Part shown: one piece after another, positions 4,909 to 31,653 of the stretch
How positions within the stretch are numbered: position 1 is the first letter of the stretch
How the letters are laid out: the number at the start of each line of letters is the position of its first letter
Origin: an uncultured Clostridia bacterium
Lineage (GTDB): Bacteria > Bacillota > Clostridia > TANB77 > CAG-508
Assembly (NCBI GenBank): GCA_944388705.1
Contig: CALXJU010000003.1
Coordinates: 3,501-67,500 of the forward strand
Direction: 5' to 3'
DNA length: 64,000 nucleotides
Notes under the pieces: generated by a model
Databases searched by the model: none
Seen by the model: only the letters and a program-made list of their open reading frames with translations
Told to the model about the DNA's origin: nothing
Made by a program: the position numbers and the translations under genes

Positions 4909-5430
4909 ATGGAAGAACTAGTCATAAAAGCCCAAAAAGGTGATAAGGAAGCATTTACAGAATTAATATATGAAATAAGACATGATTTATATAAAATAGC
5001 TAGATGTCGTTTATCTTGTGAAGACGACATAGAAGATGCTGTTCAAGAAACTATGATAATTGCATTTAAAAATATAAGAAAATTAAATAAAAGTGATTCT
5101 TATAAAAAATGGATTATAAAAATATTGATAAATAAATGTAATCAAATTTTTAATAAAAACAAAAAAAGGAATATTTCTTTTGAAGATTCCCAATTAGAAA
5201 ATGTATATTCACAAAACGAAAATTATGAAGAATTAGATAATATTGATTTTTATTTAATTTTAAAGAATTTAAATTATGATGAAAGAATAGCAATAACATT
5301 ATTTTACTTAGAAGATTATTCAATAAAAGAAATATCCAAATTATTAAAAACAAATGAAAACACCATAAAAACAAGATTAAAACGAGGTAAAGAGAAAATA
5401 AAGAATAAATTTTTGAAAGGAAATCAATAA
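4909..5430 (+). CDS. Sigma-70 family (ECF-like) RNA polymerase sigma factor
   Basis: Region 2 (DLYKIARCRL..EDDIEDAVQETMIIAF) and region 4 (ITLFYLEDYSIKEISKLLKTNENTIKTRLKRGKEKI). Confidence 0.85.
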   Translation: MEELVIKAQKGDKEAFTELIYEIRHDLYKIARCRLSCEDDIEDAVQETMIIAFKNIRKLNKSDSYKKWIIKILINKCNQIFNKNKKRNISFEDSQLENVYSQNENYEELDNIDFYLILKNLNYDERIAITLFYLEDYSIKEISKLLKTNENTIKTRLKRGKEKIKNKFLKGNQ

Positions 5431-5431
5431 T

Positions 5432-6985
5432 ATGGATGTATTAGATAAAATGATAAAAAGTGCGTTATCTAAAGAAATAGAAGAACCATATACTTATGAA
5501 AGAACAATAAAAAAAGCTTTATATATAAATAAAAAACATAAAATAAGGAATTATATAAAACAAGCCATTATAGTTATTATATCAACTATAACCACATTAA
5601 TAGGAACTTTTAGTGTATATGCAGTATCTGGTGGGAAAATTGAGGGGATTCCTGCTATGGATTGGTTAGGTATAAAGTTTTCAGATAAATATCTAGAATA
5701 TAAACAACCAGTAGAAAATCAAATAGTAGCATTTGGAGATACAAGTGTAGAATTAACATCTACAATGTGTAGTGAAGGAATTACAATTCTAGAATTTAAT
5801 ATAAAATTAAGCCAAGAAGATTATAATAATTTGAAACTCGGACAAACAGCTTATACAGAAGAGTTTAATAATCAAATTCAAGAATATAAAGAAAAAGCTA
5901 AACAAGATATGATAAAAAAAGTTAAATCAGACAAATATTTAGGACGTTTTACAAATGAAACAGACGAAGAAATAGATAGTATATTAGAACAGATAGAAGT
6001 AACAGAAGAAGAAATAGAAAAATCCGAATATTATCAAGAATATTTAGAAAAAATAAAAATGTATGATGAGCAATTAGAAGAAATAAAAAGTACAGGATTT
6101 AAAATAGGTTTAGCACTCAATGTAGAGCAAAAAGGTGGAGTATATAATTATGACAAATTTAATCCAAATACTACTTGGTATGCAAGTATATACATAGATG
6201 ATGAACCATTTTATGTTAGAAATTGGCAAAAAGTTGAAAAAATAAGTGATTACGAATATAAAATTTATAGTATGTATTCATTAACAGATGACGAATTAAA
6301 AGGTAAAGAAAATTTTAAAATTACATTAAAAAATAATAAACTAGTAAATATGGTGGCCTGGCAAAGTTTAGGTGATAATTGGATAAATGATTGTCAATGG
6401 TTTGCAAAAGAGGATAATAATATGTATTTACCTGAAAAATATATAAAAAGTTTGCCATTAGATTTTGAAGTAAATGTTTCTAAAGATTTAGTTTTAAATG
6501 ATAGTAAAGTAATAGAAAATCCAGAAATAAAATCAGAATTTAGAAATATAATACAAGAAGTAGAAAAAGTTGTAATTTCACCTATGCAAACGATTGTTAA
6601 AGTAAAACACTCAGCAAGTAAGCAATCATCTAATGCTTTTGCAAATAGATATACTGACCATAATATAGAACATTTACCAATAACAAGAGAATATAAGGTA
6701 TATGATGCCAATGGAAATGAATTAAGTTGTTTTGCTACGACAAATAAAAGAACATTAATTTATAGTGATGGAACAAGAGAAGATTATGACCCTCATGACA
6801 TACCTAATAAAAAATATAATAATGCTATATGGGAAACTATAGAATATTTGCTTATAGAAAATACTGATACAGATTATATAAAAATAGTGCCAGTAGAAAC
6901 AATTAGAAATCCTATAGAAGGTCAAGAAGATACAGGAGGAGAAATATATTATGAAATGGATCCATTAATTATAAATTTAAAATAG
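5432..6985 (+). CDS. Putative anti-sigma factor, single-pass membrane protein with a large extracytoplasmic domain
   Basis: It starts 1 nt after the sigma gene stop. It has a short cytoplasmic N-terminus and one TM (AIIVIISTITTLIGTFSVYAV). The call rests on position and architecture. Confidence 0.55.
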   Translation: MDVLDKMIKSALSKEIEEPYTYERTIKKALYINKKHKIRNYIKQAIIVIISTITTLIGTFSVYAVSGGKIEGIPAMDWLGIKFSDKYLEYKQPVENQIVAFGDTSVELTSTMCSEGITILEFNIKLSQEDYNNLKLGQTAYTEEFNNQIQEYKEKAKQDMIKKVKSDKYLGRFTNETDEEIDSILEQIEVTEEEIEKSEYYQEYLEKIKMYDEQLEEIKSTGFKIGLALNVEQKGGVYNYDKFNPNTTWYASIYIDDEPFYVRNWQKVEKISDYEYKIYSMYSLTDDELKGKENFKITLKNNKLVNMVAWQSLGDNWINDCQWFAKEDNNMYLPEKYIKSLPLDFEVNVSKDLVLNDSKVIENPEIKSEFRNIIQEVEKVVISPMQTIVKVKHSASKQSSNAFANRYTDHNIEHLPITREYKVYDANGNELSCFATTNKRTLIYSDGTREDYDPHDIPNKKYNNAIWETIEYLLIENTDTDYIKIVPVETIRNPIEGQEDTGGEIYYEMDPLIINLK

Positions 6986-11890: not shown

Positions 11891-11930
11891 TGTCATATAA
11901 TGTAGTAAAATAAAAAAAGGAGGAACAAAA

Positions 11931-12290
11931 ATGTTAAGACGTAGATATAAAAAATGCTATTGCATGAATAATGCACAAAATTCAAATATGAATTTAATTG
12001 AAGATAAGTGTGATAATGTATGTCCATGTGCTTATGAAGAATGTAATAAAGACCAATGTGAATGTGGATTTGATGAAGATTACGAAATTGGTGTATTCCC
12101 AGAAAATCCAATGTTGGCACAAAGTTATGTTCCAATACAATATATGGATAAAACATTTAAACCATGTGTTGGCTTAAAAATGGGAACAATTTTTCCAGAA
12201 TTAGTTAGTCCTTATGAACCATGTCAATCTATGAGAACTAACGAATTTATTGAAGCAACAAATAAAATAGGAGAGGGGTGTAATAGATAA
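11931..12290 (+). CDS. cotJA: Spore coat-associated protein CotJA
   Basis: C-terminal block FPENPMLAQSYVPIQYMDKTFKPCVGLKMGTIFPELVSPYEP is the CotJA signature. AGGAGG RBS. Confidence 0.8.
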   Translation: MLRRRYKKCYCMNNAQNSNMNLIEDKCDNVCPCAYEECNKDQCECGFDEDYEIGVFPENPMLAQSYVPIQYMDKTFKPCVGLKMGTIFPELVSPYEPCQSMRTNEFIEATNKIGEGCNR

Positions 12291-12649
12291 TGAACGAAAA
12301 TGATAACAGAAATTGCAATTGTATGATGAATAATAATTATTCTGTTTATATGACTAATAATTCTATGTCAAATAATGATTGTGAATATAATAATACTAGA
12401 GAAGAAATGTTTGAAAAAATAAAATGTTTAAATTTTGCTATTGTTGAATTAGGTTTATATCTAGACACTCATCCAGATGATGAAAAAGCTTTATGCTTAC
12501 ACAGAAAATATAGTAAAGAATACAGAGAGTTAACAGATAAATATCAAAAAGTTTATGGACCATTGACTATTCAATTTCCATGTAATAAATGGAGATGGCT
12601 TGAAGAACCATGGGGTTCGTTTGTTTTTGGAGTAACTAATTATATATGA
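12290..12649 (+). CDS. cotJB: Spore coat protein CotJB, with its 3' end displaced by a mobile-element insertion after nt 12613
   Basis: FAIVELGLYLDTHPDDEKALCLHRKYSKEYRELTDKYQKVYGPLT is the CotJB core. After ...EEPW the tail GSFVFGVTNYI* is element-encoded. The native tail PWERGNF* lies at 20296-20319. Confidence 0.8.
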   Translation: MNENDNRNCNCMMNNNYSVYMTNNSMSNNDCEYNNTREEMFEKIKCLNFAIVELGLYLDTHPDDEKALCLHRKYSKEYRELTDKYQKVYGPLTIQFPCNKWRWLEEPWGSFVFGVTNYI

Positions 12650-12673
12650 AAAATGCAAAATATTAAATTTTGT

Positions 12674-12727
12674 TGAAACTAATATTGACTTACATATGGT
12701 CTAATAAGTATAAATATGTACATATTA
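12674..12727 (+). promoter_or_regulatory. ECF-type promoter block, paralogous to 4841-4895
   Basis: TGAAAC-N20-TCTAATAAGTATAAATATGTACATATTA. Confidence 0.45.
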
Positions 12728-12745
12728 AAAATGGAGGAACTCAAA

Positions 12746-13264
12746 TTGGAAGAATTAGTAAAAAAAGCCAAAGAAGATGATGAAGCATTTGATGAATTAA
12801 TAAATTCTATGAAAAACGACTTATATTGCATAGCAAGGACAAGACTTGATAATTTAGATGATATGGCAGATGCAATACAAGATACAATATTAACTTGTTA
12901 TAAAAATATTCAAAAACTAAAAAATAATAAAGTATTTAAAACATGGTTAATAAAAATACTAATAAGTAAATGTAATAATATTTATAACAAAAAGAAAAAA
13001 TACAATATTTCAATTGAAGAAAATGAAATGGACAAGTATATTGAAGTGAATGATAATTTAGAAAAAATGAATTTTGAAATGTTTATAAAAAATTTGTCGC
13101 TAGATGAACAAACAATTTTAACCTTATATTATTATTCAGGATATACAACAAAAGAAATTGGTCATATTATGAACAAAAATGAAAATACTATTAAAACTAA
13201 AATAAGAAGGGCAAAAGATAAATTAAGAGAAGAATATGGAGGTGAATTGTATGAAAGAAATTGA
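12746..13264 (+). CDS. Sigma-70 family (ECF-like) sigma factor (element-borne paralogue)
   Basis: The TTG at 12746 has GGAGGA 7 nt upstream and gives an N-terminus MEELVKKAKEDD, collinear with the paralogues MEELVIKAQKGD and MEELIKNTLNGD. The track ATGs at 12716 and 12731 lack an RBS. Confidence 0.8.
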   Translation: MEELVKKAKEDDEAFDELINSMKNDLYCIARTRLDNLDDMADAIQDTILTCYKNIQKLKNNKVFKTWLIKILISKCNNIYNKKKKYNISIEENEMDKYIEVNDNLEKMNFEMFIKNLSLDEQTILTLYYYSGYTTKEIGHIMNKNENTIKTKIRRAKDKLREEYGGELYERN

Positions 13265-13913
13265 AGAAAGCTTAAGAGATTTAAGTCAAAAAAATGTTAC
13301 AATACCACAACAAATTGAACATAGAATTAATTATACATTAAAAACAAAGCAAAAAAATACATATAATTATAAGATAAAAAAATTATTAACAACTACTATA
13401 TCAATAGTATTAGTTCTCTTAGGAACTTCAGGACTAGTGTATGGGCTTACAACAGCATATGAATATATAAATCTTAATAAAGAGAAGAATATTCCTAAAT
13501 CTGATGATTATGTGCTATTAGAAGAACTTCCAAGAGACTATTCAAAAGAACAAGCTATTTTAGATAATTGTGTTGTAATTTATAATTTAGAAGTGATTTC
13601 TAATAATAAATTGAGAATAGAAGAATTTGTAGAAAACACAAATAATAATAAAGAGGATTTTATAAGAATTGTTAGGGTACAAGATAAAATAGATTACTCA
13701 ATGAGTATTTTTGATATACAATATATAGATAATGAATATAGGGTTTATTTAGACCAAACTAGATGTAATGATAAAGAAATACAAGGTTATATTTATAATA
13801 CATATTCAAAAATCGAATTGTCATCATATAATATGAATGGAAAACTAACTAAAATAGAATTAACTAACGATTTTAAAGAAAAGTTGTGTGTTGGATTTTA
13901 TTTTGATAAGTAA
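13251..13913 (+). CDS. Putative anti-sigma factor (single TM)
   Basis: It overlaps the sigma gene end. GGAGGTG RBS before the ATG at 13251. TM LLTTTISIVLVLLGTSGLVYGL. Confidence 0.5.
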   Translation: MKEIEESLRDLSQKNVTIPQQIEHRINYTLKTKQKNTYNYKIKKLLTTTISIVLVLLGTSGLVYGLTTAYEYINLNKEKNIPKSDDYVLLEELPRDYSKEQAILDNCVVIYNLEVISNNKLRIEEFVENTNNNKEDFIRIVRVQDKIDYSMSIFDIQYIDNEYRVYLDQTRCNDKEIQGYIYNTYSKIELSSYNMNGKLTKIELTNDFKEKLCVGFYFDK

Positions 13914-13937
13914 AAAATTATATATTATAATTTGAAA

Positions 13938-13963
13938 AGTGCTAGTATTTTTATGCTAGCACT
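13938..13963. terminator. Bidirectional terminator hairpin
   Basis: AGTGCTAGTA / TGCTAGCACT stem between convergent genes. Confidence 0.6.
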
Positions 13964-13976
13964 TAATATTTATTAT

Positions 13977-14909
13977 TTATAGAGAAATATACCCCATTTC
14001 TTTTATAAATTTTTTGATAGTATTTTCATCTTTTCCTTCATAATATAAAATAAGTAAATCCTTAAATTTTTCTGTTAAATCTGCTGGAATTACTATTATT
14101 CCTTTTCCTTTAGAAATAAGATAATGATTACAAAATATTATTGAAGTTCTTTTATTTCCATCAATAAATATTTGTTTTTTCATTATATATAATAAAAGTT
14201 CAATAGATTTATCAATATCATCAATATCTTTATTTAAAATTGTTTCTAACTCTTCTTTTATTATACTTTCTATAGGTAATTCAGGCTTCCATTTTGTGCC
14301 ACCAATAGTTACAGGAACAGTTCTGACTTTTCCAGCTGAATAATAAAAACCTTCTTCAATCATCTTATTAATTTCACATAATAAAGAAAAATTAGTATCA
14401 CTTAAAATAACATTTTTATTTAATATAAATTCCCATGCATGTTTTAAATTTATGATTTTTAGAATATCTTCTGATGTCATATTATTAACTTTACCACCTT
14501 CAATAATACTTTCAGTATCTGCAAAAGTAGTTGCAACACCTTCTAATATCGCTTGATTATAGATAGTGTCTACTAAGTGTCTTTTTGCAAAATCTATATT
14601 TTGTTCTACTTTTGAAGAAAGTTCAGTTTCTATATAATTTAATTGTTTTAGTTTTTTGTTAATATCTCTTATATGTTTTTTTAATTCTTTTGCTTTTATA
14701 CTATTATTTAGTATTAAATTATATAATTCATCAGAATATTCACCAACATATTTCGTTAAGGAAATACCGTCTTCTCTATAATGTACATATATATATTTAT
14801 TTGAATCACTTTCTCTTATTTCAACAGCTCCATAAGAAAGAGATTGTAATTCGTGTTCAAGTAATTGCTTATTGTGAAGAAGTTCCATAATTTCAATTTT
14901 TTCTTCCAT
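13977..14909 (-). CDS. Fic/Doc (Fido) family protein with a degenerate active-site motif
   Basis: 310 aa. The motif region KQIFIDGNKRTSII aligns to Hx(F)x(D/E)(G/A)N(G/K)R. It is Doc-like (NKR) but has Gln where the catalytic His is expected. Confidence 0.65.
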   Translation of the reverse strand: MEEKIEIMELLHNKQLLEHELQSLSYGAVEIRESDSNKYIYVHYREDGISLTKYVGEYSDELYNLILNNSIKAKELKKHIRDINKKLKQLNYIETELSSKVEQNIDFAKRHLVDTIYNQAILEGVATTFADTESIIEGGKVNNMTSEDILKIINLKHAWEFILNKNVILSDTNFSLLCEINKMIEEGFYYSAGKVRTVPVTIGGTKWKPELPIESIIKEELETILNKDIDDIDKSIELLLYIMKKQIFIDGNKRTSIIFCNHYLISKGKGIIVIPADLTEKFKDLLILYYEGKDENTIKKFIKEMGYISL

Positions 14910-14926
14910 ATACTAATCCCTCCTTT

Positions 14927-15045
14927 AAAAATGTGAAACATTTTTAATTAAAAAACATGGATTTGTTTCACATTTTAATTATACCACAAAATTTAAAAAT
15001 GTGAAACATTTTTGATAAAAAAGTTGAATTTGTTTCACATTTTTA
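14927..15045. repeat. Two copies (68-bp period) of a 13-bp inverted repeat AAAATGTGAAACA-N23/N24-TGTTTCACATTTT
   Basis: Unit 1 is 14927-14976 and unit 2 is 14995-15045. The pair lies between the Fic gene start and the 3' end of the Spo0A-like gene. Confidence 0.7.
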
Positions 15046-15060
15046 AAATATGATTAAAAA

Positions 15061-15771
15061 TTACATAGCAAGTTTATTTAAAATTGTAAAAATAACAACT
15101 TTAGGCTTAGGTTTAATAGCTGTATAAAAATTAAAATATTTTTTTAATCTAGTTTCATCACAATCATAAAACATAGATGTAGTTGCACATGTAATACTAC
15201 ACTTAACATTATTAACAGTTTTATTATGTTTTTTAGCAATTATAGGATATATATTTTTATTTAAACTTTCACTATAATCATGGTTTGTATAAATTAAAGC
15301 AATACATTCAGATAAATATTTTGTTCCTGTATATGACATATTATAACCAATATATTCTAATTCTTTATTTATTTTTGAAATTAAATCAGTTTTATTAATG
15401 TTTAAAAATCTATTTTTCACGAGTTCACAAGTTTTTGCATAAATATTAGAAATATTTTCATCATCACTTAAAAAGCTATATATAAACTCATCTTCTATCT
15501 TTTCTGTAGAATTATTAGATAATATTATTATAGATTTTTTGCATTTTTCTCTGTAAGGTTTTGATAATTTTTTTAAAGAGTTAATAATTTCAACAATTTC
15601 ACAATCAGGATGTATTATAGTTATATCTATAATACCAGTATTTAAAAGTTTCATACCGTCTGATAATGAATCAGTTATATTATAAACTTTAATTTCATCA
15701 TTTTTTGCAAATTCATTTAATAATTTCATTGAATGTTTAATATCTTTATTAATAATAAGTAAATTTAACAT
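15061..15771 (-). CDS. Spo0A-like regulator: degenerate receiver domain plus Spo0A_C-type DNA-binding domain
   Basis: The C-terminal half LEYIGYNMSYTGTKYLSECIALIY...NIYPIIAKKHNKTVNNVKCSI...KPKPKVVIFTILNKL is collinear with Spo0A [56 protein letters not shown]. The N-terminal acidic pair of receivers is missing (IINKD). Confidence 0.6.
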   Translation of the reverse strand: MLNLLIINKDIKHSMKLLNEFAKNDEIKVYNITDSLSDGMKLLNTGIIDITIIHPDCEIVEIINSLKKLSKPYREKCKKSIIILSNNSTEKIEDEFIYSFLSDDENISNIYAKTCELVKNRFLNINKTDLISKINKELEYIGYNMSYTGTKYLSECIALIYTNHDYSESLNKNIYPIIAKKHNKTVNNVKCSITCATTSMFYDCDETRLKKYFNFYTAIKPKPKVVIFTILNKLAM

Positions 15772-16048
15772 TTTTATCCCATCTCCCAATCATTAGATGC
15801 AGAAAATTAATAATCGAATGCAAAATATTAAAAAAATGTCTAAAAAAGTAAAAAAATTTTTATCTTTTTTTACCTTTTTTTATTTTTTCTAACTTTTCGT
15901 GTTAAAATTATCAAGAAATGTACGAAAATGTACAAGAATTGTTGTAAATATTAGAAATCAATAGTTAAGTTTAAGATAAATTTCAAACTAACTTATTGGT
16001 TTAGCAGGAAAATGATTTAATTAGGTCAAAGTATAAGGAGGAAAATCT

Positions 16049-16573
16049 ATGAAGACTAAGAAACGGATTGTTGCTCTTGTAGTTGCATTGGCAATGTGTG
16101 TTACCAATTTTTCAATGGTAACATTTGCGGCTGAAGGTGAGGATATGACTTCAAATGCAAAGGTTATATCTGTTGAAGAAATGGAAGATGGAAGAGTCCG
16201 GTACGAGATGGAACTCACACCACAAAGCACAGATGAGAATGGTGTATCAACATATCTTATACAGTCCTGTTTTACAATGAATGGGACTTATTATCGTGGT
16301 GCTGACCGGAAGTATGCAGGAAACTATCTAGATTTTACAATTGAAGTAACCGGAGCGGATGGAACACCACAGCCCAACAAACAAATTCAGGCACAATTAT
16401 GGGATTATAACAATAACTGTTTGTTGGTTTCTACTGTAACAGCAGATGGTGGAGCGACTACAGAATCAGGAATAAAAATTGTACCCAATAGGACTTATTA
16501 TTTCAAATACTACTTAGTAACAGGTAGCAGTTCTAATTTAAGAGTTTGCATGTATTTCGATACGTGGGGCTAA
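16049..16573 (+). CDS. Secreted hypothetical protein (signal peptide), compositionally foreign
   Basis: Signal peptide MKTKKRIVALVVALAMCVTNFSMVTFAAEG and an AAGGAGG RBS. Hand counts give 23 G+C in nt 16049-16108 and 25 in 16321-16380, against 13 in the 60 nt before 16021. Confidence 0.6.
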   Translation: MKTKKRIVALVVALAMCVTNFSMVTFAAEGEDMTSNAKVISVEEMEDGRVRYEMELTPQSTDENGVSTYLIQSCFTMNGTYYRGADRKYAGNYLDFTIEVTGADGTPQPNKQIQAQLWDYNNNCLLVSTVTADGGATTESGIKIVPNRTYYFKYYLVTGSSSNLRVCMYFDTWG

Positions 16574-16640
16574 TAAAAAATTTTATTTAAAATTTTTAGA
16601 GATAAAGTGATTTTAAAAAATGAATCATTTTCTTGCAAAA

Positions 16641-16661
16641 GAGGCATCTTAACGGTGCCTC
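16641..16661. terminator. Short hairpin between convergent genes
   Basis: GAGGCA-N9-TGCCTC, with T-rich flanks on both strands. Confidence 0.45.
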
Positions 16662-17729
16662 CTATTTTGATAATTCTATATCTATACTTTTATCTATATC
16701 TAAATCAATGTGTAAAAATAACTTATCAATATTTGTATCATAAATTGTAATTGGATAAAAGATTGTTACTATACTACTTGATTTTGTAACATTCTTAAAC
16801 AACATTCTAATACGAGAATAATCTTTATTATTAACATCTCTTAAAATCGTAGAATTATGAGAATAGATAATATTTTTGTCAAAAGAAGTATTTAATTCCA
16901 AAGCAATACTTAAAGAAGTATCAGTAAGTAATGTTTCTACGTTATTAACATATTTATTATTACTACAGTTATATTTATAACTAGTTCTATATACAAATTT
17001 ATCAACTAAGTTTATCGAAAAATTCCAATTACCATCTATATTTATAATTTTATTTTCAGTTTTTAAAGAAATATTGTTTATTGAAATATATAGTATTTCG
17101 GATTTAGGCAAACTCTCAGAAGTTATCCATAAAGAACTTCTAATTGTTGAATTATCAATAATTTGTTGATTATTAACAAATTTAGCGATATTTTGTATAA
17201 TAGTAGTATTATTATCAGCTTGATTATCTTGTGATAATACACATAAAACATTTTCCTTCTCATCTTTAATAGTAATATCCATAAAATCCAATCCAGTAAT
17301 TTGTTCCACATCATTACCCATATACTTATACACAAAAGAAATATTAAGATTATGGTCATCCATAAGAACATAATCAACCTTAACACCTAAATTGTTATCT
17401 TCAATAAAATCCATATCTACATTTTGTACATATCCATTTTCAACTGCAGTATCTACACCTTCATTGCTATTAGTAAAAATAGAAGTAAAGAAATTAATAA
17501 TATCTTTAGCAAAAACAGTAGAAGCAGTAATAGCACTAAGTGAGATTACTAAAATAGCAACTCTTTTCAATATAAAATCAAAAGAACTTTTGTGTTTAGT
17601 ACTTTTCTTAGCAAAAATATTATCAATAGTATTATCAATAGTGTTTTGAGTAGAAAGAGGAATATCTTTATTTTTTTCATATGCATCAAATAAAATTTTA
17701 TCTAAATTATCATTATTTTCTTGATTCAT
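16662..17729 (-). CDS. Putative anti-sigma factor (single TM, large extracytoplasmic domain)
   Basis: It overlaps the upstream sigma gene by 17 nt. TM VAILVISLSAITASTVFA. Confidence 0.5.
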   Translation of the reverse strand: MNQENNDNLDKILFDAYEKNKDIPLSTQNTIDNTIDNIFAKKSTKHKSSFDFILKRVAILVISLSAITASTVFAKDIINFFTSIFTNSNEGVDTAVENGYVQNVDMDFIEDNNLGVKVDYVLMDDHNLNISFVYKYMGNDVEQITGLDFMDITIKDEKENVLCVLSQDNQADNNTTIIQNIAKFVNNQQIIDNSTIRSSLWITSESLPKSEILYISINNISLKTENKIINIDGNWNFSINLVDKFVYRTSYKYNCSNNKYVNNVETLLTDTSLSIALELNTSFDKNIIYSHNSTILRDVNNKDYSRIRMLFKNVTKSSSIVTIFYPITIYDTNIDKLFLHIDLDIDKSIDIELSK

Positions 17730-18258
17730 TATCTAACTCCTCCTTTTCCAAATATTTTCTAAGTTTTTGTTTTGTTCTATAGATTGTACTTTTTATAGTA
17801 TTTGCATTAATACCCAAAATATCAGATATTTCATCAGGAGTATATTTACTATTATAATGTAAAGCTAAAATTAATTGCTCTTTTTCATTCAAATGTTTTA
17901 ATAATATATCAAAATCAATCTTATCTTCAGTAATATTAAAAGGATTGGCAATTTCAACTGTAGTTTTAGAAATAGATAATTTATTAAAAATTTTAGTTTG
18001 TCTATACTTTTTTCTATAAATGATATTACATTCATTAATTAAAATTCTTATAATCCAAGTTTTAAAAAGTTTAGGTTCTTTCAAAGTATGTAATTTATCA
18101 AAAGCCTTAAAAATAGTTTCTTGAATAGCATCATTAACATCGTCAAGATTTTTAAGTTTTGCTTGAGCAACACGATATAAATCGCTTTTGACAGAATCAA
18201 TTAAAACTTCAAAAGAATGTTTATCGCCATTTAAAGTGTTTTTTATTAATTCTTCCAA
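17713..18258 (-). CDS. Sigma-70 family (ECF-like) sigma factor (element-borne paralogue)
   Basis: DLYRVAQAKLKNLDDVNDAIQETIFKAF and LILALHYNSKYTPDEISDILGINANTIKSTIYRTKQKL. Confidence 0.85.
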   Translation of the reverse strand: MEELIKNTLNGDKHSFEVLIDSVKSDLYRVAQAKLKNLDDVNDAIQETIFKAFDKLHTLKEPKLFKTWIIRILINECNIIYRKKYRQTKIFNKLSISKTTVEIANPFNITEDKIDFDILLKHLNEKEQLILALHYNSKYTPDEISDILGINANTIKSTIYRTKQKLRKYLEKEELDNESRK

Positions 18259-18545
18259 AACAAAATCTCCTTCTTAAATTATTTTTTTGGATTTTATCAA
18301 TAAAAAATCAAAATTTCAACCATGAATATTATAGGGGGATTTTGTCAAAAAACAATATAAAGATAAAAAAAGGTAAAAAATAATTCAAGACATATTAAAA
18401 AATTTGATGTAAAATATATCTTGTAAATATTATATTCAATTCAAAAAAATAGTTGAGGAAATTATTTCTTCACTATTTTTTTTATAAATAAAATGAAATT
18501 CTATAATAATTACCTAAGTGCATATAGTGTATAGAGGTGATTTAA

Positions 18546-18653
18546 TTGAATGAAAATATACAAGAAATATACACTGAAGATGGAAAAAGATTATTAGATT
18601 TAATTCAAGAATGGATTGATGAGAATAATTCTTTTTTTTATTTTAAAAGATAA
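18546..18653 (+). CDS. Possible 35-aa ORF upstream of the recombinase (TTG start)
   Basis: GAGGTG lies 6 nt upstream of the TTG. Product LNENIQEIYTEDGKRLLDLIQEWIDENNSFFYFKR. No recognised family. Confidence 0.25.
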   Translation: MNENIQEIYTEDGKRLLDLIQEWIDENNSFFYFKR

Positions 18654-18687
18654 GAAATAGTTATAGACTCAAGATAGGAGGGAAAAC

Positions 18688-20257
18688 ATGTATGAGTCAA
18701 ATAATTATTCATCAAACCAATATACATGGAATGTAGCTATATATGTAAGATTATCAAGAGAAGATGAAAAAGAAGCAAAATATAAAAGTCAATCAGAAAG
18801 CATTGAAAATCAAATTAAATTTCTTAAAAAAGTTGTATCAGAAAAAAACTGGAATTTAATAGATATTTATTCAGATGATGGTTATACTGGAACAAATTTT
18901 AATAGACCAGCTTTTCAACGATTGATAAAAGACATAGAAAATAAAATTATTAATTTAGTTATAACAAAAGATTTATCAAGACTAGGAAGAGACTACATAG
19001 AAACAGGAAGATTTATAGAAAAATATTTTCCAGAAAAAAGAGTAAGATATATAGCAGTTAATGATAATATAGATACATTTGATATAAATAATTTTAGTAG
19101 TGATATAACACCATTTAAAGCAGTATTTAATGATATGTATGCAAAAGATATTTCTAATAAGGTGAGAACAGCAATTACCACAAAAGCAAATGCAGGAGAA
19201 TGTATAAAACCTTTTTTACCATATGGACTAAAAAAAGATATACACAATAAAAATAATATATTAATAGATGAAGATGTTGCTGATAATGTTAGAAAAATTT
19301 TTGATTTATATATGTTAGGAAATTCAAAAACACAAATTGCAACAAAATTTAATGAGTGGGGGATAAAAACTCCATTACAACATAAGCAAGAAACAACAAA
19401 CTATTATAATCCAAAAGCAAAACAAAAAATGTATAAATGGAATTCTACAATGATAAATAAAATATTAAGAGATAGAAGCTATGTAGGAGATTTAGTTCAA
19501 TTAAAAAATAAAAAAATAAATTATAAAATCCCTAAAACGGAAAAAGTATCTTTAGAAAATCAAATAATAATAGAAAATAATTATCCTGGTATAATAAGCA
19601 GAAATGTTTATAATACCGTACAAGAAATGTTAGACAAACAAGCTAATGAGTGGAATTATTCTAATAAAAAAAGACATATATTAACAGGATTGGTTTACTG
19701 TAATTGTGGTGGTAAAATTACATATAACAAAAATCATGGTAAATATTTTAGATGTATATGCTCAAATTATAAAAAATATGGAAAAGATATTTGTAAAGGT
19801 GTCCATATTAGAGAAGATGAATTAATAGAAATTGTTAGAAAATCATTAAAAAATAATATACAACAATATTTGAATATTAGAGATTTAAAATTTAATCGGT
19901 GTTCAAAACAAAGAAAATAATAAAAATCATATTATAAAAATTGAAAATAAAAAAAGAGAAATTAATAAATTAATAAGTAATTTATATGAAGACAAGATTT
20001 CAGGTATAATTTCACAAGATACATTTTCTAGTCTTATTAATAAGTATGAAGAACAAAAACAACAATTAGAAATTGACATAGAGAAACATGAAATATATAT
20101 TCCTAATACAACAAAATATAATGATTTAATAAAAGAATTATTAAATTTTAATGAAATCAATGATAAAAATATAGGTTTAGTTTTTAAATTAATAAATAAA
20201 ATTATTATAGATGATAAAAATATTAGTATAAATTATAAATTTTCTTTATCTGCATAA
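18688..20257 (+). pseudogene. Large serine recombinase with an apparent frameshift near 19887-19900
   Basis: The N-terminus VAIYVRLSREDE (catalytic Ser), DDGYTGTNFNRPAFQ and SRLGRD, plus the recombinase and zinc-ribbon regions, run to a stop at 19920. The C-terminal coiled-coil (..INKLISNLYEDKISGIISQDTFSSLINKYEEQ..IIIDDKNISINYKF) continues in another frame to 20257. Confidence 0.7.
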
Positions 20258-20295
20258 AAAATTATTAAAATTCCTCCAGATTGAACCAAGGGTGG

Positions 20296-20319
20296 CCTTG
20301 GGAAAGGGGGAATTTTTAA
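20296..20319 (+). CDS. cotJB: Displaced native 3' end of cotJB (PWERGNF*)
   Basis: CCT TGG GAA AGG GGG AAT TTT TAA is in frame with 12613 after excision. The TAA is directly followed by the cotJC ATG. Confidence 0.65.
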   Translation, partial: PWERGNF

Positions 20320-20526
20320 ATGTGGACTTATAATAAAATGTTACAATATCCAGTTAATATCAAATGCACAGACCCTCGTCTTGCAAAAGTAATTATTTCT
20401 CAATATGGAGGTCCAGATGGAGAACTTGCAGCTTCTTTAAGATATTTGTCTCAAAGATTTGGTATGCCTGACCAAAATGCAAAAGCTATTTTAAATGATA
20501 TTGGTACTGAAGAATGTGTTCCATGA
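20320..20526 (+). CDS. cotJC: cotJC 5' segment (65 native codons to 20514, then CVP* from the inserted element)
   Basis: MWTYNKMLQYPVNIK..YGGPDGELAASLRYLSQRF..LNDIGTEE is the N-terminus of the CotJC/Mn-catalase family. Confidence 0.85.
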   Translation: MWTYNKMLQYPVNIKCTDPRLAKVIISQYGGPDGELAASLRYLSQRFGMPDQNAKAILNDIGTEECVP

Positions 20527-20684
20527 TGTTATCAAGAAGATGAAAAATCAGTGTGTTCCATTTTGGAATATACTGCATCAGATAAATTGGAAAAATAGTC
20601 CAGATGGTTTAATATACAAATATGATGTGTCACTTGGTGAACTGTCTTTTTAATACTGCTTTATAATCAATAGTCATAAACTAA

Positions 20685-22235
20685 TCAGGCTAAGAATTTA
20701 GGGTATATATGTAATTCAAAATTTGTTGAGTTAGAACTTTTTTTAATAGCTTTTTCTATTTTTAAATATGTAATTTTTGAAATTATGCTTTTTAAGAATA
20801 TATTCTTATCTTCAGCTGTTTCTAAGTTATCATATAAATCAATTATATTTTCTAATTTGGGTTTCATGGTTTCTTTTGGAAAATTTTTATTACTCTGTAA
20901 TAAAGATTTATATTCTTCTAATTTAATTTTTAAATTTTGAATATTATCTTTAATAGCTTTTGAACGAGTAATAAATTCATCTTTATTATAAAGACCGTTT
21001 TCCAAAAAGCTATAAACATTATCAAGTTTAGCATTTTCTTTTGCTAATTCTTTTTTTGTTGCTAAAATAGATTGCTCTATTATCTTGTTATTATCTGTAT
21101 TAAAATTACTTTTAATATCATAATTTACTTTATAATTTTTAAACCATATTTTTAAAGCCTCAATGATTTTATTTTCTACAATATAAAGTTTAGAACTTAT
21201 ATTATCACATTTTGGATTTGGACAAATAAGGGAGGAAGGTTTATCAGCTTTTGTATAAGGTCGTCTTTGCATAGGTTTTCCGCACTTTTCACAAAATACT
21301 AGACCAACTAATGGATTTTGAATAATGTTATTATGTTTTACTTTTGGAGTATTTTGTTTTCTTTTTTCTTGTACTAATTCCCAAGTCTTATTATCAATAA
21401 TAGGTTCATGTAATCCGTCATAAATTAAATAATCTTGATTACGAGGTCTACTAATTATAAGATGTCCATTTTTTGTTTTCTTATTTTGTTTTCTTCTATT
21501 CCAAACAATTTTACCGATATATGTAGGATTAGAGAGAATATCTTTAACAGAAGAAATACTCCATTCATTTGCAATTCTAGGCTTTAAATTTAAATTATTT
21601 AAATGTTTTGTAACTGAATTTATAGTAGTATTTTCAAAACAATATAATCTAAAAATTTCTTTTACAATAGGTGCTTCATCTTGATTTATAGATAAAGTAT
21701 ATCCTTTTGCATCTTTTAGTTTTACTCTATCATATCCAAAAGGAGCAATATTTCCAACAAATTTACCTTCTTGTACTGAAAGTTCACGACCTCTTTGCAA
21801 ACGTCTATTAATTGTTTTATATTCTCTTCTAGACATAAATAAGCCAAATTCAAAATATTCTTCATCAAATTCATTATCTGGGTCATAAGTTTTAACAGGA
21901 GTGATAATTTTTGTATGAGAATATTTAAAAGCTTTTGCAACAATGCCTTGGTCAGAAGTATCACCACGGGCAAGTCTTTCTACTTCAACAACTAAAATAC
22001 CAGTCCATTTTTCATTTTCGACATCTCTAAGAAGTTTTTGCATTTCTTTTCTTTCGCTAATAGTTTCACCACTAACAACTTCTCTATAAATTTTTGAAAT
22101 AGGCAGATTTCGGCTTGAAGCTAAAGTAGTTAAAATTTTTTCATGTCTTGCTAAAGTTTCACCTTCACCATATTTTTCAGCTTCAATATCTTCTCTGGAT
22201 TTTCTTAAATATATTGCATATGTGCCGTTTTGCAT
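20685..22235 (-). CDS. Large serine recombinase (intact, 516 aa)
   Basis: AIYLRKSREDIE (catalytic Ser), VERLARGD, a recombinase domain, a Cys4 zinc ribbon (CEKCGKPM...CPNPKCDN) and a C-terminal coiled-coil. Confidence 0.9.
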   Translation of the reverse strand: MQNGTYAIYLRKSREDIEAEKYGEGETLARHEKILTTLASSRNLPISKIYREVVSGETISERKEMQKLLRDVENEKWTGILVVEVERLARGDTSDQGIVAKAFKYSHTKIITPVKTYDPDNEFDEEYFEFGLFMSRREYKTINRRLQRGRELSVQEGKFVGNIAPFGYDRVKLKDAKGYTLSINQDEAPIVKEIFRLYCFENTTINSVTKHLNNLNLKPRIANEWSISSVKDILSNPTYIGKIVWNRRKQNKKTKNGHLIISRPRNQDYLIYDGLHEPIIDNKTWELVQEKRKQNTPKVKHNNIIQNPLVGLVFCEKCGKPMQRRPYTKADKPSSLICPNPKCDNISSKLYIVENKIIEALKIWFKNYKVNYDIKSNFNTDNNKIIEQSILATKKELAKENAKLDNVYSFLENGLYNKDEFITRSKAIKDNIQNLKIKLEEYKSLLQSNKNFPKETMKPKLENIIDLYDNLETAEDKNIFLKSIISKITYLKIEKAIKKSSNSTNFELHIYPKFLA

Positions 22236-22247
22236 AAATTCTCCTTT

Positions 22248-22382
22248 CTATGAAAAGGATTTTTCTATTAGATTAATAATTACATTATCGATATATTTTT
22301 TTTGTTCGGCAGTATCTTTAACTACACAATCATCATAAAATTTTATTTTAGTTTTTTCTATCATATATTCTTCTAAGAGCAT
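22248..22382 (-). CDS. 44-aa ORF directly upstream of the recombinase (candidate accessory/directionality factor, speculative)
   Basis: AAGAGGTG RBS before the ATG at 22382. It ends 12 nt before the recombinase start. Confidence 0.3.
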   Translation of the reverse strand: MLLEEYMIEKTKIKFYDDCVVKDTAEQKKYIDNVIINLIEKSFS

Positions 22383-22448
22383 TAAAATCACCTCTTTAAA
22401 ATTTATGAAAATAGAATAAAAAAATACCAAAACTATTTATAAATAATA

Positions 22449-22477
22449 TTGACGAAAGAAAAATAAGATAATATAAT
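22449..22477 (+). promoter_or_regulatory. Sigma-A promoter
   Basis: TTGACG, 17 nt, TATAAT. Confidence 0.5.
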
Positions 22478-22503
22478 TAACAAAAAAGATTGGAGTGAAG
22501 AAT

Positions 22504-23010
22504 ATGAAAACAAATTTATCTAATTTAATGAATATTGTAGTAGAAGAGGAGAGAAAATTCTCAGCATATGGATATGAATTAAAAGAATATGCATATAATA
22601 CTTCTACACAAGAATTAGATGGAACAGTTAATATAATTGAAGACTACAAAGAAGACTTTACAAAAGATTTTGAAGAATATAAAAAAACACAAGAAAAAAT
22701 TACAAAAATTAAATCTATGATATTCCAAAAAAACAATACATTTAAATTACCAGATGGGAGAACAATCCAAGAAGCACTAGTTGATAATACAAATTTAAGA
22801 AAAATGAAAAATCTATATAATTATTTATTATCACAAAAAAGTGTAAAGAAAAGAGTAACAGAAGTAAATAATTCATATTTTGAATGTAAAACAATTAATT
22901 TTGATATTAATCAAATAAGAGAAGAATACGAAATTTTAGAAAAGAAAATTCAAGATACAGATTTTGAAATTTCAAAATTAAATTCAATAGAGTTTGAAAT
23001 AGATATTTAA
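22504..23010 (+). CDS. DIP1984-family (septicolysin-like) coiled-coil protein
   Basis: The central FKLPDGRTIQEALVDNTNLRKMKNLYNYL resembles the L.DGRT..EAL..RD.L block of that family. The assignment is from memory. Confidence 0.45.
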   Translation: MKTNLSNLMNIVVEEERKFSAYGYELKEYAYNTSTQELDGTVNIIEDYKEDFTKDFEEYKKTQEKITKIKSMIFQKNNTFKLPDGRTIQEALVDNTNLRKMKNLYNYLLSQKSVKKRVTEVNNSYFECKTINFDINQIREEYEILEKKIQDTDFEISKLNSIEFEIDI

Positions 23011-23261
23011 AAAATGGGTGCTTGCAAAGTTATTTAGCAAGGTAAATGAGAAAAAAGCTAACAGCCTATACTATCCTTTTCATATCGAAAATGTTATAAA
23101 TGAATAAAAAGGAAGATAGCAAAATCTGGTCAAAAGATTGGCAATTTTTTATTACAAATTATATATTTTATGTGTTTTTTTCACAATTTAAATTTACAAT
23201 TCAAAAAAATAAAAATTGAAATGTGGATAATTATTAAATAAAAAGATATGAAAGGATAGGG

Positions 23262-23294
23262 CAGTCATACAATTATTTTGTAATTGTATGACTG
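23262..23294. terminator. Perfect 14-bp hairpin downstream of the sortase gene
   Basis: CAGTCATACAATTA-TTTTG-TAATTGTATGACTG. Confidence 0.55.
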
Positions 23295-23305
23295 TTATAA
23301 ATTTT

Positions 23306-24109
23306 CTATTTTTTTCCAACTACTGCAAATCTTCCATCTTTAACATGATAAGAACAAGTAGATAAAGTAATTAATTGGTCTCCATATTTAGCAGTTGGAG
23401 CAATATCGTATAAAGATGCATTTTTTGCATTATTTATAAACTCATTATATTCTTGTTCTGTTTCAGCATTAACAAAAAAATAATACCTAAAAACATTTTT
23501 TTCTGATTGATAATATACTCTTGATTTAAAAACAGCGATAATTTCATATTCTGAATCATCATCAACAGTCGTAAAACGAATTCTAGGGTGTTGTTCATAA
23601 AAAGATTGATTAGAATATTTTAATAATTCTTGAAACATCGTACCATTATTTAAATTGTGACCATATATTAACAAATTACTACTTGGAATTTCCCAATTAT
23701 AATCTTTTGTTAAAAAAATTGAACCATTTTTAGATTTTTGTTTTTTATAATTATGCTTCATATAATATTCATTATCAGCACCTTGTAAAACCGGATAATT
23801 AATGCTAGTACCAGGTATTTCTAACCAGCCTACAATATCAGAATTTTGGCTTTTAAGTTCTTTTACTTTAAGCATTCTTTCTGTTTCTTGAGGTAGTGTT
23901 TCAACAGGAGTGTTTTCTGTGATTAAATCTGTTTGCTTTCTAGAAACATTATTTACAATCTTATCACTATCAATGTCATTTAATAAATTACTTTCCTCAA
24001 TAGCTTCTTTTTTTAATAAAAACGAATTTATGATATATATAATCGATAAAATAATTAATAAAACTAAAATAAAATATATTAAAATATAAATTTTTTTAGT
24101 TTTTTTCAT
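23306..24109 (-). CDS. srtB: Class B sortase
   Basis: N-terminal TM, LIYGHN, and LITLSTCSY (catalytic Cys, TLSTC signature). Confidence 0.8.
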   Translation of the reverse strand: MKKTKKIYILIYFILVLLIILSIIYIINSFLLKKEAIEESNLLNDIDSDKIVNNVSRKQTDLITENTPVETLPQETERMLKVKELKSQNSDIVGWLEIPGTSINYPVLQGADNEYYMKHNYKKQKSKNGSIFLTKDYNWEIPSSNLLIYGHNLNNGTMFQELLKYSNQSFYEQHPRIRFTTVDDDSEYEIIAVFKSRVYYQSEKNVFRYYFFVNAETEQEYNEFINNAKNASLYDIAPTAKYGDQLITLSTCSYHVKDGRFAVVGKK

Positions 24110-24151
24110 ACTAACTCCAAAAATATATTATATAAGGATAGACTAAAAAGA

Positions 24152-25276
24152 CTATCCTTTAATATTTTTCTTGTTAATAGTTGCAATTGCTATTACTGAG
24201 AATAATATAGTTAATACAGCGATTCCCAAATAATTTTGAACACCAGTTTTTGGAGTTTCATCTTTTACTCCATTATTTACTTCTGGTGTAGTTTCTGGTA
24301 TAGTTGTTTCAACTTTTGAAATTTTTGCATAAACAGTTGTATCAGCAGTTATAGGATTATTAAAATCAAAAGCATTAGCAAAATTTGCATCTGTATAGAA
24401 TCCATCAACAACTTGATTTTCTCCTAATTTAATATGAGTTTTTAATAAATCAGCAGTTATTTTTTCACCTGAATTTACTGTTATTTTATAAGTTACATCA
24501 TTAACAAAAATAGTAACAATTAATTGTTTTACATCTACATTTGGTGTAGCTTTATCAGGTATAGTTGTTTCTGAAATAACATTATTATTTTTATCAGTTA
24601 ATACTACTTTATTTCCTGATAAAACAACTTTATTTGTTGTATCAGGTGTATTTGTAATAGTAAAATCTGTTAAATGACCATTTTCAGCTGGACGAACTAC
24701 ATTTTCATTTGATTCAGTAGTTAATACCCCATTCATTACTAAAGTTGGATTATTTGTAGCTGAAGCACCTTTGTCAATTTCTATACCATTATTGGCTCCT
24801 GTGCCATTTTTTCCTAAATGTAATCTTTTTACTTCAACATTACCACCATTTGCAAGAACACCGCCATATTTAAATCCTGAAATTGAAACATTATCTAAAA
24901 TAACAGTTGCACCATCATAAGATTGTACACCATATTTTGGACCATTTTTCAATTGAATATTTTTTAATGTAAGTTTAGCTGCAGAAAATTGAGCTGTAAA
25001 CATTGTTTGATTTCCTGATGTAGATGTCCAATCTTTAGAACCAACTACATTATGACCATTACCATCAATTGTTAATTCTTTAGCTATTACAATTGGTTTT
25101 GTTACTGTAATATCATTTTGTAATGTTATTGTTGCTCCTGAGTCTGCACTTGAAATTACACTATTTAAAGATTCCTCATCATGAGCTGTTGTTGCAGCCT
25201 TACTATAATTTGGTAGCATAATTGCAAAAATAGCTGTTACTATAAAAAATAAAATGAATTTTATTGTTTTATTCAT
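24152..25276 (-). CDS. Cell-wall-anchored beta-helix surface protein (sortase substrate)
   Basis: Signal peptide, an N-cap SLNSVISSADSGATITLQNDITV..LTIDGNGH, and a C-terminal TPKTG sorting motif followed by a TM and KKNIKG. ATG at 25276 with a GGAGGTG RBS. Confidence 0.75.
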   Translation of the reverse strand: MNKTIKFILFFIVTAIFAIMLPNYSKAATTAHDEESLNSVISSADSGATITLQNDITVTKPIVIAKELTIDGNGHNVVGSKDWTSTSGNQTMFTAQFSAAKLTLKNIQLKNGPKYGVQSYDGATVILDNVSISGFKYGGVLANGGNVEVKRLHLGKNGTGANNGIEIDKGASATNNPTLVMNGVLTTESNENVVRPAENGHLTDFTITNTPDTTNKVVLSGNKVVLTDKNNNVISETTIPDKATPNVDVKQLIVTIFVNDVTYKITVNSGEKITADLLKTHIKLGENQVVDGFYTDANFANAFDFNNPITADTTVYAKISKVETTIPETTPEVNNGVKDETPKTGVQNYLGIAVLTILFSVIAIATINKKNIKG

Positions 25277-25465
25277 TTTTTTCACCTCCATCAAAAATTA
25301 TTGTCTCCTTTTTAATTTTAAATATTTACAAAAATCATTAAAAAAATTTTCCAAAAAATTTTTTGCAGAATATGAATAATATTGTAAATGATTGTGTTAA
25401 ATAAAATTTTTATATAAAAAAATAAAAATACAGAACAAAAAGTTATTTTTGCATATAAAAATAAC

Positions 25466-25494
25466 TTGACAAAATTGCAATTAAATTTTATAAT
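25466..25494 (+). promoter_or_regulatory. Consensus sigma-A promoter
   Basis: TTGACA, 17 nt, TATAAT, overlapped by an 11-bp hairpin AAGTTATTTTT/AAAAATAACTT. Confidence 0.6.
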
Positions 25495-25502
25495 AAATAT
25501 AG

Positions 25503-26705: not shown

Positions 26706-26789
26706 TAAAAATGAATATTTAAATGGTCAAAAAAGTGCTTTTGAAATAAAGAATTACGTAAAATTCTAATAAAGAAAGGATTTGATGAA

Positions 26790-27857: not shown

Positions 27858-27876
27858 AGTAATGTTATAAAAAATA

Positions 27877-27904
27877 AAAATGAGGATTTTATCCTCATTT
27901 TTTC
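27877..27904 (+). terminator. Rho-independent terminator
   Basis: AAAATGAGGAT-TTT-ATCCTCATTTT followed by a T-run. Confidence 0.8.
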
Positions 27905-27976
27905 TTGACAAATAAAAAAAATTGTCATAAAATAATATTTTGAAACTAATAGAAAAAAAGAAAGGAAGGAGAAAAA

Positions 27977-31577: not shown

Positions 31578-31586
31578 TATAAATAA

Positions 31587-31630
31587 AACAGAGCATTAAT
31601 TTGTAAAGAACTTAATGTTCTGTTTTTATT
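31587..31630 (+). terminator. Rho-independent terminator at the right end of the cotJC element
   Basis: AACAGAGCATTAA / TTAATGTTCTGTT stem (one G-T pair) followed by TTTATT. Confidence 0.7.
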
Positions 31631-31653
31631 GATAACATTTTGGAACAGAAGAA

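Follow-up and report, generated by a model that had tools for sequence, protein, structure and literature searches.

A probable skin-type intervening element without phage genes in cotJB of an uncultured Clostridia bacterium, with a serine recombinase gene laid out in two reading frames

Elements that split a gene and are removed at sporulation have so far been described in only a few genes, all from cultured species of Bacillus and Clostridium. SPbeta, which lies in spsM, is recombined by SprA, and its excision in the mother cell is triggered by the small factor SprB, which is made from a sigma-E/K promoter. In the skin element of sigK in Bacillus subtilis the recombinase is SpoIVCA, while skinCd of Clostridium difficile has the recombinase CD1231 and the directionality factor CD1234 (PMC5025042, PMC4191935). 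Small intervening elements have also been described in gerE of Bacillus cereus ATCC 10987 (gin, explicitly a non-prophage; PMC5595907) and in yabG of C. botulinum (yin; PMC10747680). Here, we analyze a 64,000-nt stretch of contig CALXJU010000003.1 from an uncultured Clostridia bacterium (the window; all coordinates count from its start), in which an element of 7,682 bp (12614-20295) interrupts cotJB within the cotJA-cotJB-cotJC operon. The locus as a whole is best explained, at a probability that we put at about 60%, as a skin-type intervening element of non-phage nature, with a recombinase divided between two frames at a CGG codon and with an excision that would be timed to sporulation.

The window has a GC content of 26%, and cotJA (11931-12290, plus strand; Pfam CotJA, E 3.7e-13) and cotJB come after carB. 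In the integrated state, the cotJB open reading frame (ORF) spans 12290-12649, yet only its first 108 codons (12290-12613, plus strand; Pfam CotJB), ending in CNKWRWLEEPW with W108, are those of the gene, and the reading frame then runs into the unrelated tail GSFVFGVTNYI. The missing end of cotJB, PWERGNF and a stop, is encoded at 20296-20319 (plus strand) as CCT TGG GAA AGG GGG AAT TTT TAA, a stretch that also holds the ribosome-binding site of cotJC and that directly abuts the cotJC ATG at 20320. When 12613 is joined to 20296, the frame is kept and a CotJB of 115 residues with a PWPWE-type end is obtained, which matches the Pfam CotJB profile up to its last position (2-76 of 76, E 4.6e-27), and the abutment of cotJB and cotJC is restored. 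TGG is common to both junctions (12611-12613 and 20293-20295), and the element ends carry imperfect inverted repeats, CTCCA/GAACC at 20274-20287 and GGTTC/TGGAG at 12614-12632. The two parts of cotJB, their in-frame join, the shared TGG and the end repeats had been described in an earlier note on this DNA, made from the sequence alone, and each was found where that note had placed it. At the left junction (12605-12628), a hairpin, GAACC ATGG GGTTC, is followed by GTTTGTTTTT and was scored as terminator-like in a scan; in the integrated state, transcripts of cotJ could be halted there.

The empty site was found in other genomes. An exact copy of its 24-mer, GAAGAACCATGGCCTTGGGAAAGG, is present in 76 species-representative genomes of uncultured gut Clostridia, in all 76 at the end of cotJB and directly ahead of the cotJC ATG, and the intervening element is missing from these species. 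No empty allele of the same species was found among the species-representative genomes, the nearest genomes with an empty site being only ~82% identical. Among 145 CotJB homologues, 109 have a PWPWE-like C-terminus, with PWERGNF as the commonest ending, while 32 carry alien tails starting with (G/A/P/V)SF, which are translated element ends. The reconstituted CotJB of 115 residues is itself present, without any change, in a public protein collection (P0241), next to a version that differs by one residue (P0249). The contig from which P0241 comes (L175, 1,349 bp) lacks the element, and cotJA, cotJB and cotJC are all uninterrupted in it. If 12614-20295 and a separate element in cotJC (20515-31653) are both taken out of the window, what remains is identical to positions 27-1349 of this contig, at 1,323 of 1,323 bases. 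As the 24-mer in 76 species, the CotJB tails, P0241 and L175 all match, the joint is real to the nucleotide, the agreement being much greater than chance would give, and we regard both the insertion and its exact joint as practically certain. The expectations of the earlier note on the empty site and on the C-termini of CotJB homologues were thus both borne out.

The element belongs to a large and previously unrecognised family. A search with a degenerate attL pattern found elements of the same type at the identical cotJB codon in 54 species-representative genomes, so that the 24-bp site is occupied in 54 of the about 130 species that have it (~40%). This target is conserved because it encodes the PWPWE end of CotJB and contains the cotJC ribosome-binding site. 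On the element side, the two arms follow the layout CTCCA-N4-GAACC and GGTTC-N8-TGGAG across the family, with TGG as the shared core. The left end of the element in the window (the P' arm, 12614-12636, plus strand) reads GGTTCGTTTGTTTTTGGAGTAAC and is conserved as NNTTCGTTnnnTTTGGGAGTAA in the 54 genomes, and the right end (the P arm, 20271-20295, plus strand, right TGG copy included) reads TTCCTCCAGATTGAACCAAGGGTGG and is conserved across the family as TTCCTCCA-N4-GAACCAAGGGTGG. In all family members, host sequence changes to element sequence at the left TGG (attL, 12611-12613), the overlap copy that should contain the crossover. The two bases that follow TGG differ from element to element (GT, CC, GC or GG), which places the crossover in or before TGG.

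In many genomes, a relative of the recombinase is encoded beside a fragment of cotJB or cotJC. At ten of these loci (L082, L083, L085-L090, L161 and L173), the recombinase gene runs antisense to cotJ and occupies the end of the element nearest to cotJB, and the junction arms look the same as those of the window. The arms are alike in both layouts because attP is an almost perfect palindrome (AACCAAGG-GTGG-CCTTGGTT in L083), and we considered that the element may be inverted in some of these species. In one metagenome-assembled genome (UMGS1689), contigs USGK01000019 (L004) and USGK01000028 (L069) end and begin within the empty-site sequence, in which they overlap. This looks like a branch of the assembly graph at attB, as is expected when occupied and empty forms coexist in a sample.

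A prophage origin was tried and rejected. The PHROG matches of the element comprise only sigma factors, a Doc-like protein, proteins of unknown function and the integrase, and no phage structural, packaging or lysis genes are among them. IMG/VR contains a single close relative, an element of much the same kind that is likewise devoid of such genes.

The right edge of the element is occupied by a large serine recombinase, as the earlier note had stated, but the region that it had assigned to the gene (18688-20257) is not a single ORF. Frame 0 (18688-19920, plus strand) encodes 410 residues with the catalytic, recombinase and zinc-ribbon domains (PF00239, 1.5e-21; PF07508, 9.1e-18; PF13408, 7.1e-10), the closest solved structure being the TnpX catalytic domain, and stops at 19920, just ahead of the coiled-coil. 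The C-terminal part, with the coiled-coil and the closing beta-hairpin, is found in the +1 frame only (19898-20257, plus strand; 119 codons and a stop), and its end lies 36 bp short of the right junction. A sequencing or assembly error might be suspected at such a break, and the site is indeed A-rich, although nothing specific speaks for an error and no homopolymer is present. The suspicion is refuted by an identical 410-residue product in at least four independent assemblies (from ENA and Logan) and by the same architecture in nine diverged lineages, and we give this explanation next to no credence. Among the best 120 cluster representatives, 17 stop at the same position of the recombinase.

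In all nine lineages with readable DNA, whose recombinases are 63-87% identical, an in-frame CGG is found at the break. In the window, this codon is at 19897-19899 (plus strand, AAT CGG T) and is the proposed +1 frameshift site. The +1 frame opens 2-23 nt 5' of the CGG and stays open for 119-127 codons, up to the normal C-terminus, while frame 0 stops 2-13 codons 3' of it. Taken over the nine lineages, the region in which the frame change is permitted narrows to the CGG plus or minus one codon, and no triplet of the linker other than the CGG is invariant, the rest of it being variable. The ratio of nonsynonymous to synonymous substitution rates (dN/dS) in the +1 part is 0.12-0.47, with dS of up to 1.9, a sign of purifying selection. 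The two-frame architecture at the CGG is conserved, and the +1 part is under selection.

These data should be considered when asking if the recombinase is a decaying pseudogene, in which a frameshift mutation killed the enzyme and locked the element in place. Such decay would fit with a frame 0 that ends at 410 residues, before the coiled-coil, and with a break that is common to all near-clonal strains. It does not fit with a break at the same CGG in nine lineages, nor with +1 ORFs that remain free of stops over their 119-127 codons in DNA of 21-26% GC and that bear the signature of selection given above. The dS values further indicate that these ORFs are not recent copies of one sequence, and intact alleles with identical flanks exist. 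Decay is thus largely refuted, and we consider it very improbable.

In a neighbour-joining tree, the two-frame forms fall into at least five clades, each of which has in-frame sisters. None of the 28 scorable recombinases of the species-representative genomes is in two frames, all being in frame, and the two-frame form is, as far as these sequences tell, confined to the recombinase subfamily nearest to that of the window. In a structure model of an in-frame relative (P0002, 78% identical; mean predicted local distance difference test score 76), the break maps to a flexible linker (residues 399-413) that connects the helix of the zinc ribbon to the first helix of the coiled-coil; the coiled-coil helices (414-474) and the closing hairpin (505-519) follow. 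A different irregularity was seen in a large clade of recombinases of 464-466 residues (P0068-P0095), which start at MMVTLGTNFDRPDF and are devoid of the first ~70 residues and, with them, of the catalytic serine motif. Either another recurrent break or a wrongly placed start site in the 5' part of the gene could account for this.

CGG is the rarest arginine codon in this group of organisms. Only one of the 444 arginine codons in the long ORFs of the window is CGG, and among 81,615 codons of related species it accounts for 1.1% of the arginine codons (0.39 per 1,000 codons). ATG, GTG and TTG are all absent from the +1 ORF of the window, which thus can not be a separate gene there. As the break is conserved at the CGG, the +1 part is selected and without a start codon, and CGG is rare, the simplest reading of the two-frame recombinase would be a programmed +1 ribosomal frameshift at the CGG, and from the compared sequences we consider this probable. 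A ribosome that decodes CGG 19897 would meet the stop seven codons further on and release the form of 410 residues, devoid of the coiled-coil, while one that shifts by +1 at this codon would read GGT and go on to a full-length recombinase of about 522 residues.

One can also think of a recombinase of two subunits, in which the protein of 410 residues and a coiled-coil protein of about 120 residues, started separately, for example by termination-reinitiation, assemble after translation. Gene callers do report a second ORF of 102-131 residues in several lineages, and a TTG or an ATG is found near the overlap in some. These start codons, however, vary in position (-20 to +73 nt) where they are present and have no conserved ribosome-binding site, the window has none at all, and a separate start leaves the invariant CGG unexplained. 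We hold this arrangement to be improbable.

Several points nonetheless weigh against a programmed frameshift. The codon before the CGG is not conserved (AAT, AAA, GAG, GAA or GAT) and is not classically slippery. No consensus RNA structure was predicted near the shift site, and no upstream Shine-Dalgarno-like stimulator was found there. CGG, although rare, is still an assigned codon in this clade, and one cargo gene, that of the secreted protein described below, contains three of them. Separately from these points, a tRNA scan of the window gave no tRNA-Arg, a Rfam scan of 11000-33000 matched no RNA family, and no report of recoding or frameshifting in serine recombinases was found in the searchable literature.

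A further idea, which we put forward as speculative and rather doubtful, is that the CGG would be a regulatory device and more than a tolerated defect: the ratio of short to long recombinase would be set by the supply of charged tRNA-Arg, which falls with starvation at the onset of sporulation. The coiled-coil of large serine recombinases normally blocks recombination between attL and attR. On this speculative view, a mixed population of both forms could thus itself switch the direction of recombination, either together with the small ORF that lies upstream of the recombinase or instead of it, and excision and the rebuilding of cotJB would in this way be tied to the nutrition of the mother cell. 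As for the activity of the two forms, in the LI integrase removal of the coiled-coil abolishes directional control and leaves a weak enzyme (PMC5499577), and because such an enzyme stays weak and undirected, we take the long form of the recombinase to be the active one.

The small ORF directly 5' of the recombinase (18546-18653, plus strand) encodes a conserved acidic protein of 35 residues with an isoelectric point (pI) of 4.3 and the motif IYTxDGKxLxxLIQEWIxENN. A small ORF of this kind (35-55 residues) precedes every recombinase of the family, ends about 35 bp before it and has a strong GAGGTG ribosome-binding site. The protein has no match in Pfam, PHROGs or NCBIfam; given its size, charge, position and conservation, it is a candidate recombination directionality factor. 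A -10 box of the sigma-E/K type, CATATAGT (18521-18528, plus strand; motif CATAnAnT), lies ahead of the small ORF and the recombinase, and this motif is found no more than 45 nt upstream of the small ORF in 12 of 20 family loci, as compared to 3.3% expected. The other box to be considered, CATATAAT (11894-11901, plus strand; sigma-K/E type, with AC 17 nt upstream), lies ahead of cotJA and is the likely -10 box of the cotJ operon promoter. For comparison, mother-cell promoters of C. difficile have a -10 motif type that is common to sigma-E and sigma-K, and its operons of the cotJB/cotJC type depend on sigma-K (PMC3789822). A scan for sigma-70 promoters was uninformative in this AT-rich DNA, with 89 found and 86 expected from shuffled sequence.

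In the integrated state, partly convergent genes and a terminator-like hairpin (13937-13964) stand ahead of cotJC, and continuity of the operon thus needs removal of the element, in agreement with what the earlier note had reasoned on expression of the whole operon. A course of events can be proposed for this. The element most likely entered the conserved 24-bp 3' end of cotJB when a TnpX-like large serine recombinase recombined attP with attB. In the mother cell, the promoter of sigma-E/K type would drive the small ORF and the recombinase, and the fraction of ribosomes that shifts at the CGG would make the full enzyme. Recombination of attL with attR, with the crossover inside TGG, would then remove the 7,682 bp, rebuild the CotJB of 115 residues and restore the cotJA-cotJB-cotJC operon, for which the cotJC element would have to leave as well. 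The spore would keep the element, for which a predominance of the interrupted allele in metagenomes gives indirect evidence. Since the small ORF and the recombinase stand behind a -10 box of the sigma-E/K type, excision would be expected in the sporulating mother cell, and by analogy with the known elements we give such timing an even chance.

The excision proposed above should be weighed against an ordinary integrative element for which the conserved 3' end of cotJB is a safe place to integrate and which is never excised in development. In such a case, the altered CotJB, in which 7 residues are exchanged for 11, and the lost co-transcription of cotJC would be tolerated, cotJ being dispensable or redundant. 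The insertion at the extreme 3' end of cotJB speaks for this, as does cargo that differs between elements as it does in mobile islands, and mutants of cotJC-like catalases in C. difficile have no gross coat defect (PMC11222575). So does the finding that the interrupted allele is dominant in the species-level cluster (at least 22 contigs from at least 10 samples), with intact alleles in only 3 contigs. Neither an excised circle nor an attP junction turned up: the attP pattern AACCAAGGGTGGNNTTCGTTTNNTTT gave only two unrelated matches of high GC in JGI metagenome contigs, a result that speaks neither way, as the organism is probably absent from that collection. In a check for occupied and empty forms in one sample, the carriers listed for the interrupted allele did not include SRR11402182.

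Other observations, too, make developmental excision less secure. The first 26 bases of L175 differ from the window where the likely promoter sits, and this contig, which is no proof of excision, may equally stem from a strain that never had the elements, or its tip may be a product of the assembly. The -10 motif is missing at 8 of the 20 family loci. Finally, CotJB loses only 7 residues to the insertion, and the truncated protein might still work.

An ordinary landing site has, however, difficulties of its own. The fragments are intact, as the cotJB tail and the cotJC ribosome-binding site are kept and the two halves of cotJC join to an ORF of 203 residues. Occupancy of ~40% among the site-bearing species, with cotJC split in most, is hard to fit with simple gene loss. 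A -10 box of the mother-cell type stands ahead of the recombinase operon. In addition, every characterised element of the same layout in a mother-cell gene is excised at sporulation (PMC4191935, PMC5595907, PMC10747680). We thus consider an ordinary element unlikely, although it has to be kept in mind, and retain an intervening element with sporulation-timed excision as the preferred explanation.

The cargo of the element is regulatory, and the gene assignments of the earlier note hold. The element carries two extracytoplasmic function (ECF)-type sigma factors, each of which is paired with a membrane partner. The first (12716-13264, plus strand; Pfam Sigma70_r2/r4_2, NCBIfam TIGR02937) is overlapped by the gene of a membrane protein (13236-13913, plus strand) that has no family match and is, by its position and overlap, a putative anti-sigma factor. 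The second (17713-18258, minus strand; Pfam and NCBIfam) is followed by an anti-sigma factor with a DUF4179 domain (16662-17729, minus strand; Pfam DUF4179, E 3.9e-9). Between the two pairs lie a protein of the Fic/Doc family (13977-14909, minus strand; Pfam Fic, E 5.9e-10; PHROG 11900), a protein with a Spo0A C-terminal domain and no recognisable receiver domain (15061-15789, minus strand; Pfam Spo0A_C, E 5e-13) and a secreted protein (16049-16573, plus strand). The set of sigma factor, DUF4179 protein, secreted protein and Spo0A_C protein is found again in related elements, and homologues of the Spo0A_C protein recur in six of them (L082, L085, L160, L161, L167 and L176).

Two further observations concern these regulatory genes. 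At window positions 16000-17500, the strains of L077 and L078, which are otherwise ~100% identical to the window, diverge from it by ~16% (69, 104 and 68 differences per 500 bp). This hypervariable patch spans the gene of the secreted protein and, of the DUF4179 anti-sigma gene, the part for the outer region, and it suggests recombination or diversifying selection on what may be a pair of sensor and ligand. The secreted-protein gene has a GC content of 33%, as compared to ~21% around it, and it contains three in-frame CGG codons, of which the whole window has four. Outside the element, at 4909-6985, another ECF sigma factor and a large membrane protein resemble the pairs that the element carries.

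The second element of the operon (20515-31653; 11,139 bp) splits cotJC after 65 codons, leaving a 5' part at 20320-20514 (plus strand) and a 3' part at 31654-32070 (plus strand) that complete the gene of 203 residues when joined. Its recombinase (20685-22235, minus strand) is intact, with 516 residues, and is unrelated to that of the cotJB element, being ~23% identical, and its core, GAAGAA within GG(T/A)AC(T/A)GAAGAA, differs as well; the earlier note had rightly taken the two elements to be independent. The cotJC element has its own small ORF upstream of the recombinase (~44 residues within 22248-22430, minus strand; pI 4.9) and carries a sortase and a surface protein (23306-25294). Of the 76 species in which the cotJB site is empty, ~25 have an intact cotJC and ~31 have it cut at ~65-73 residues; in the remaining ones the cut is at ~38-40, 100, 111, 122, 133-136, 160 or 174 residues. 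Across species (L001-L076), cotJC is cut at six or more codon positions, for example after GTEE (~65 residues), QYGGPDGE (~38-40), YYTDHGVG (~111) and QEDLAAD (~136), and at the last of these L182 has two tandem recombinases. cotJC is thus a multi-site insertion hotspot. In the account that a preprint gives of earlier work, cotJC is indeed listed as one of the sporulation genes into which phage- or transposon-related DNA often inserts (Abe et al. 2013, cited in bioRxiv 10.1101/2021.11.22.469490), while no mention of an interruption of cotJB was found in the searchable literature.

These results have some consequences for the analysis of gut bacteria. Gene-splitting elements are common in uncultured gut Clostridia, and two unrelated ones can share one operon. 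The cotJ fragments that they leave are liable to be mis-annotated as truncated coat genes, and inventories of sporulation genes that are based on metagenome-assembled genomes would be distorted. Sporulation-type regulators on an element, such as a Spo0A DNA-binding domain and ECF sigma/anti-sigma pairs, could alter the development of the host. If the frameshift is true, it would be the first recoding event found for a serine recombinase in the searchable literature and would add a level of translational control to an enzyme family that is widely used for directional genome engineering, and natural short and long forms would help in studying how the coiled-coil sets direction. Intervening elements in sporulation genes are themselves already known; what is new here is the conserved two-frame recombinase, the conserved ORF upstream of it and the scale of the family.

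The recoding proposed here can be compared to several known cases. Programmed +1 frameshift sites at slow codons are GCG AGU U in Ty3, CUU AGG C in Ty1 and CUU UGA C in prfB. With these, the proposed recombinase site would share a change from frame 0 to +1 at a rarely used A-site codon; as in Ty3, a slippery P-site codon is not required, while the upstream Shine-Dalgarno-like stimulator of prfB has no counterpart. In transposases of the IS1 and IS3 families, a -1 frameshift fuses two ORFs. There, too, recoding between two ORFs sets the level of a DNA-rearranging enzyme, although the shift has the opposite direction and the enzyme family is different. In mitochondrial genes of glass sponges, a +1 shift occurs at a rare CGG or UGG before GGA, a pattern that is described for Ty3 as well, and the new frame of the recombinase likewise begins with a GGN (Gly) codon (PMC5009743). 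Control of Streptomyces development by bldA and UUA codons, in which a developmental protein is gated by one rare codon in the linker between its domains (PMC10732093), acts through tRNA supply and without any change of frame.

As for the element itself, skin and skinCd are similar in being defective, non-lytic elements in a sporulation gene of the mother cell, with a large serine recombinase at one end, a precise removal that rebuilds the ORF and a small factor that is expected to set the direction. The cotJB element differs in that it hits the last 7 codons of a coat-assembly gene rather than a sigma factor, is devoid of phage remnants and has a recombinase that needs a change of frame. Its candidate factor lies directly 5' of the recombinase, apparently in one operon, and the element is known from sequence alone. 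SPbeta, unlike the cotJB element, is a functional phage of 134 kb with a recombinase encoded by a single ORF. The cotJB element resembles gin and yin as a small intervening element in a late mother-cell gene, with an attB that is conserved in element-free strains, and differs from them in its target gene, its recombinase lineage, a family of at least 54 species and a regulatory cargo of ECF sigma/anti-sigma pairs, Spo0A_C and Fic proteins. Compared to the cotJC integration locus of Abe et al. 2013, as it is described in the citing preprint, both cotJB and cotJC are split here, by elements with unrelated recombinases.

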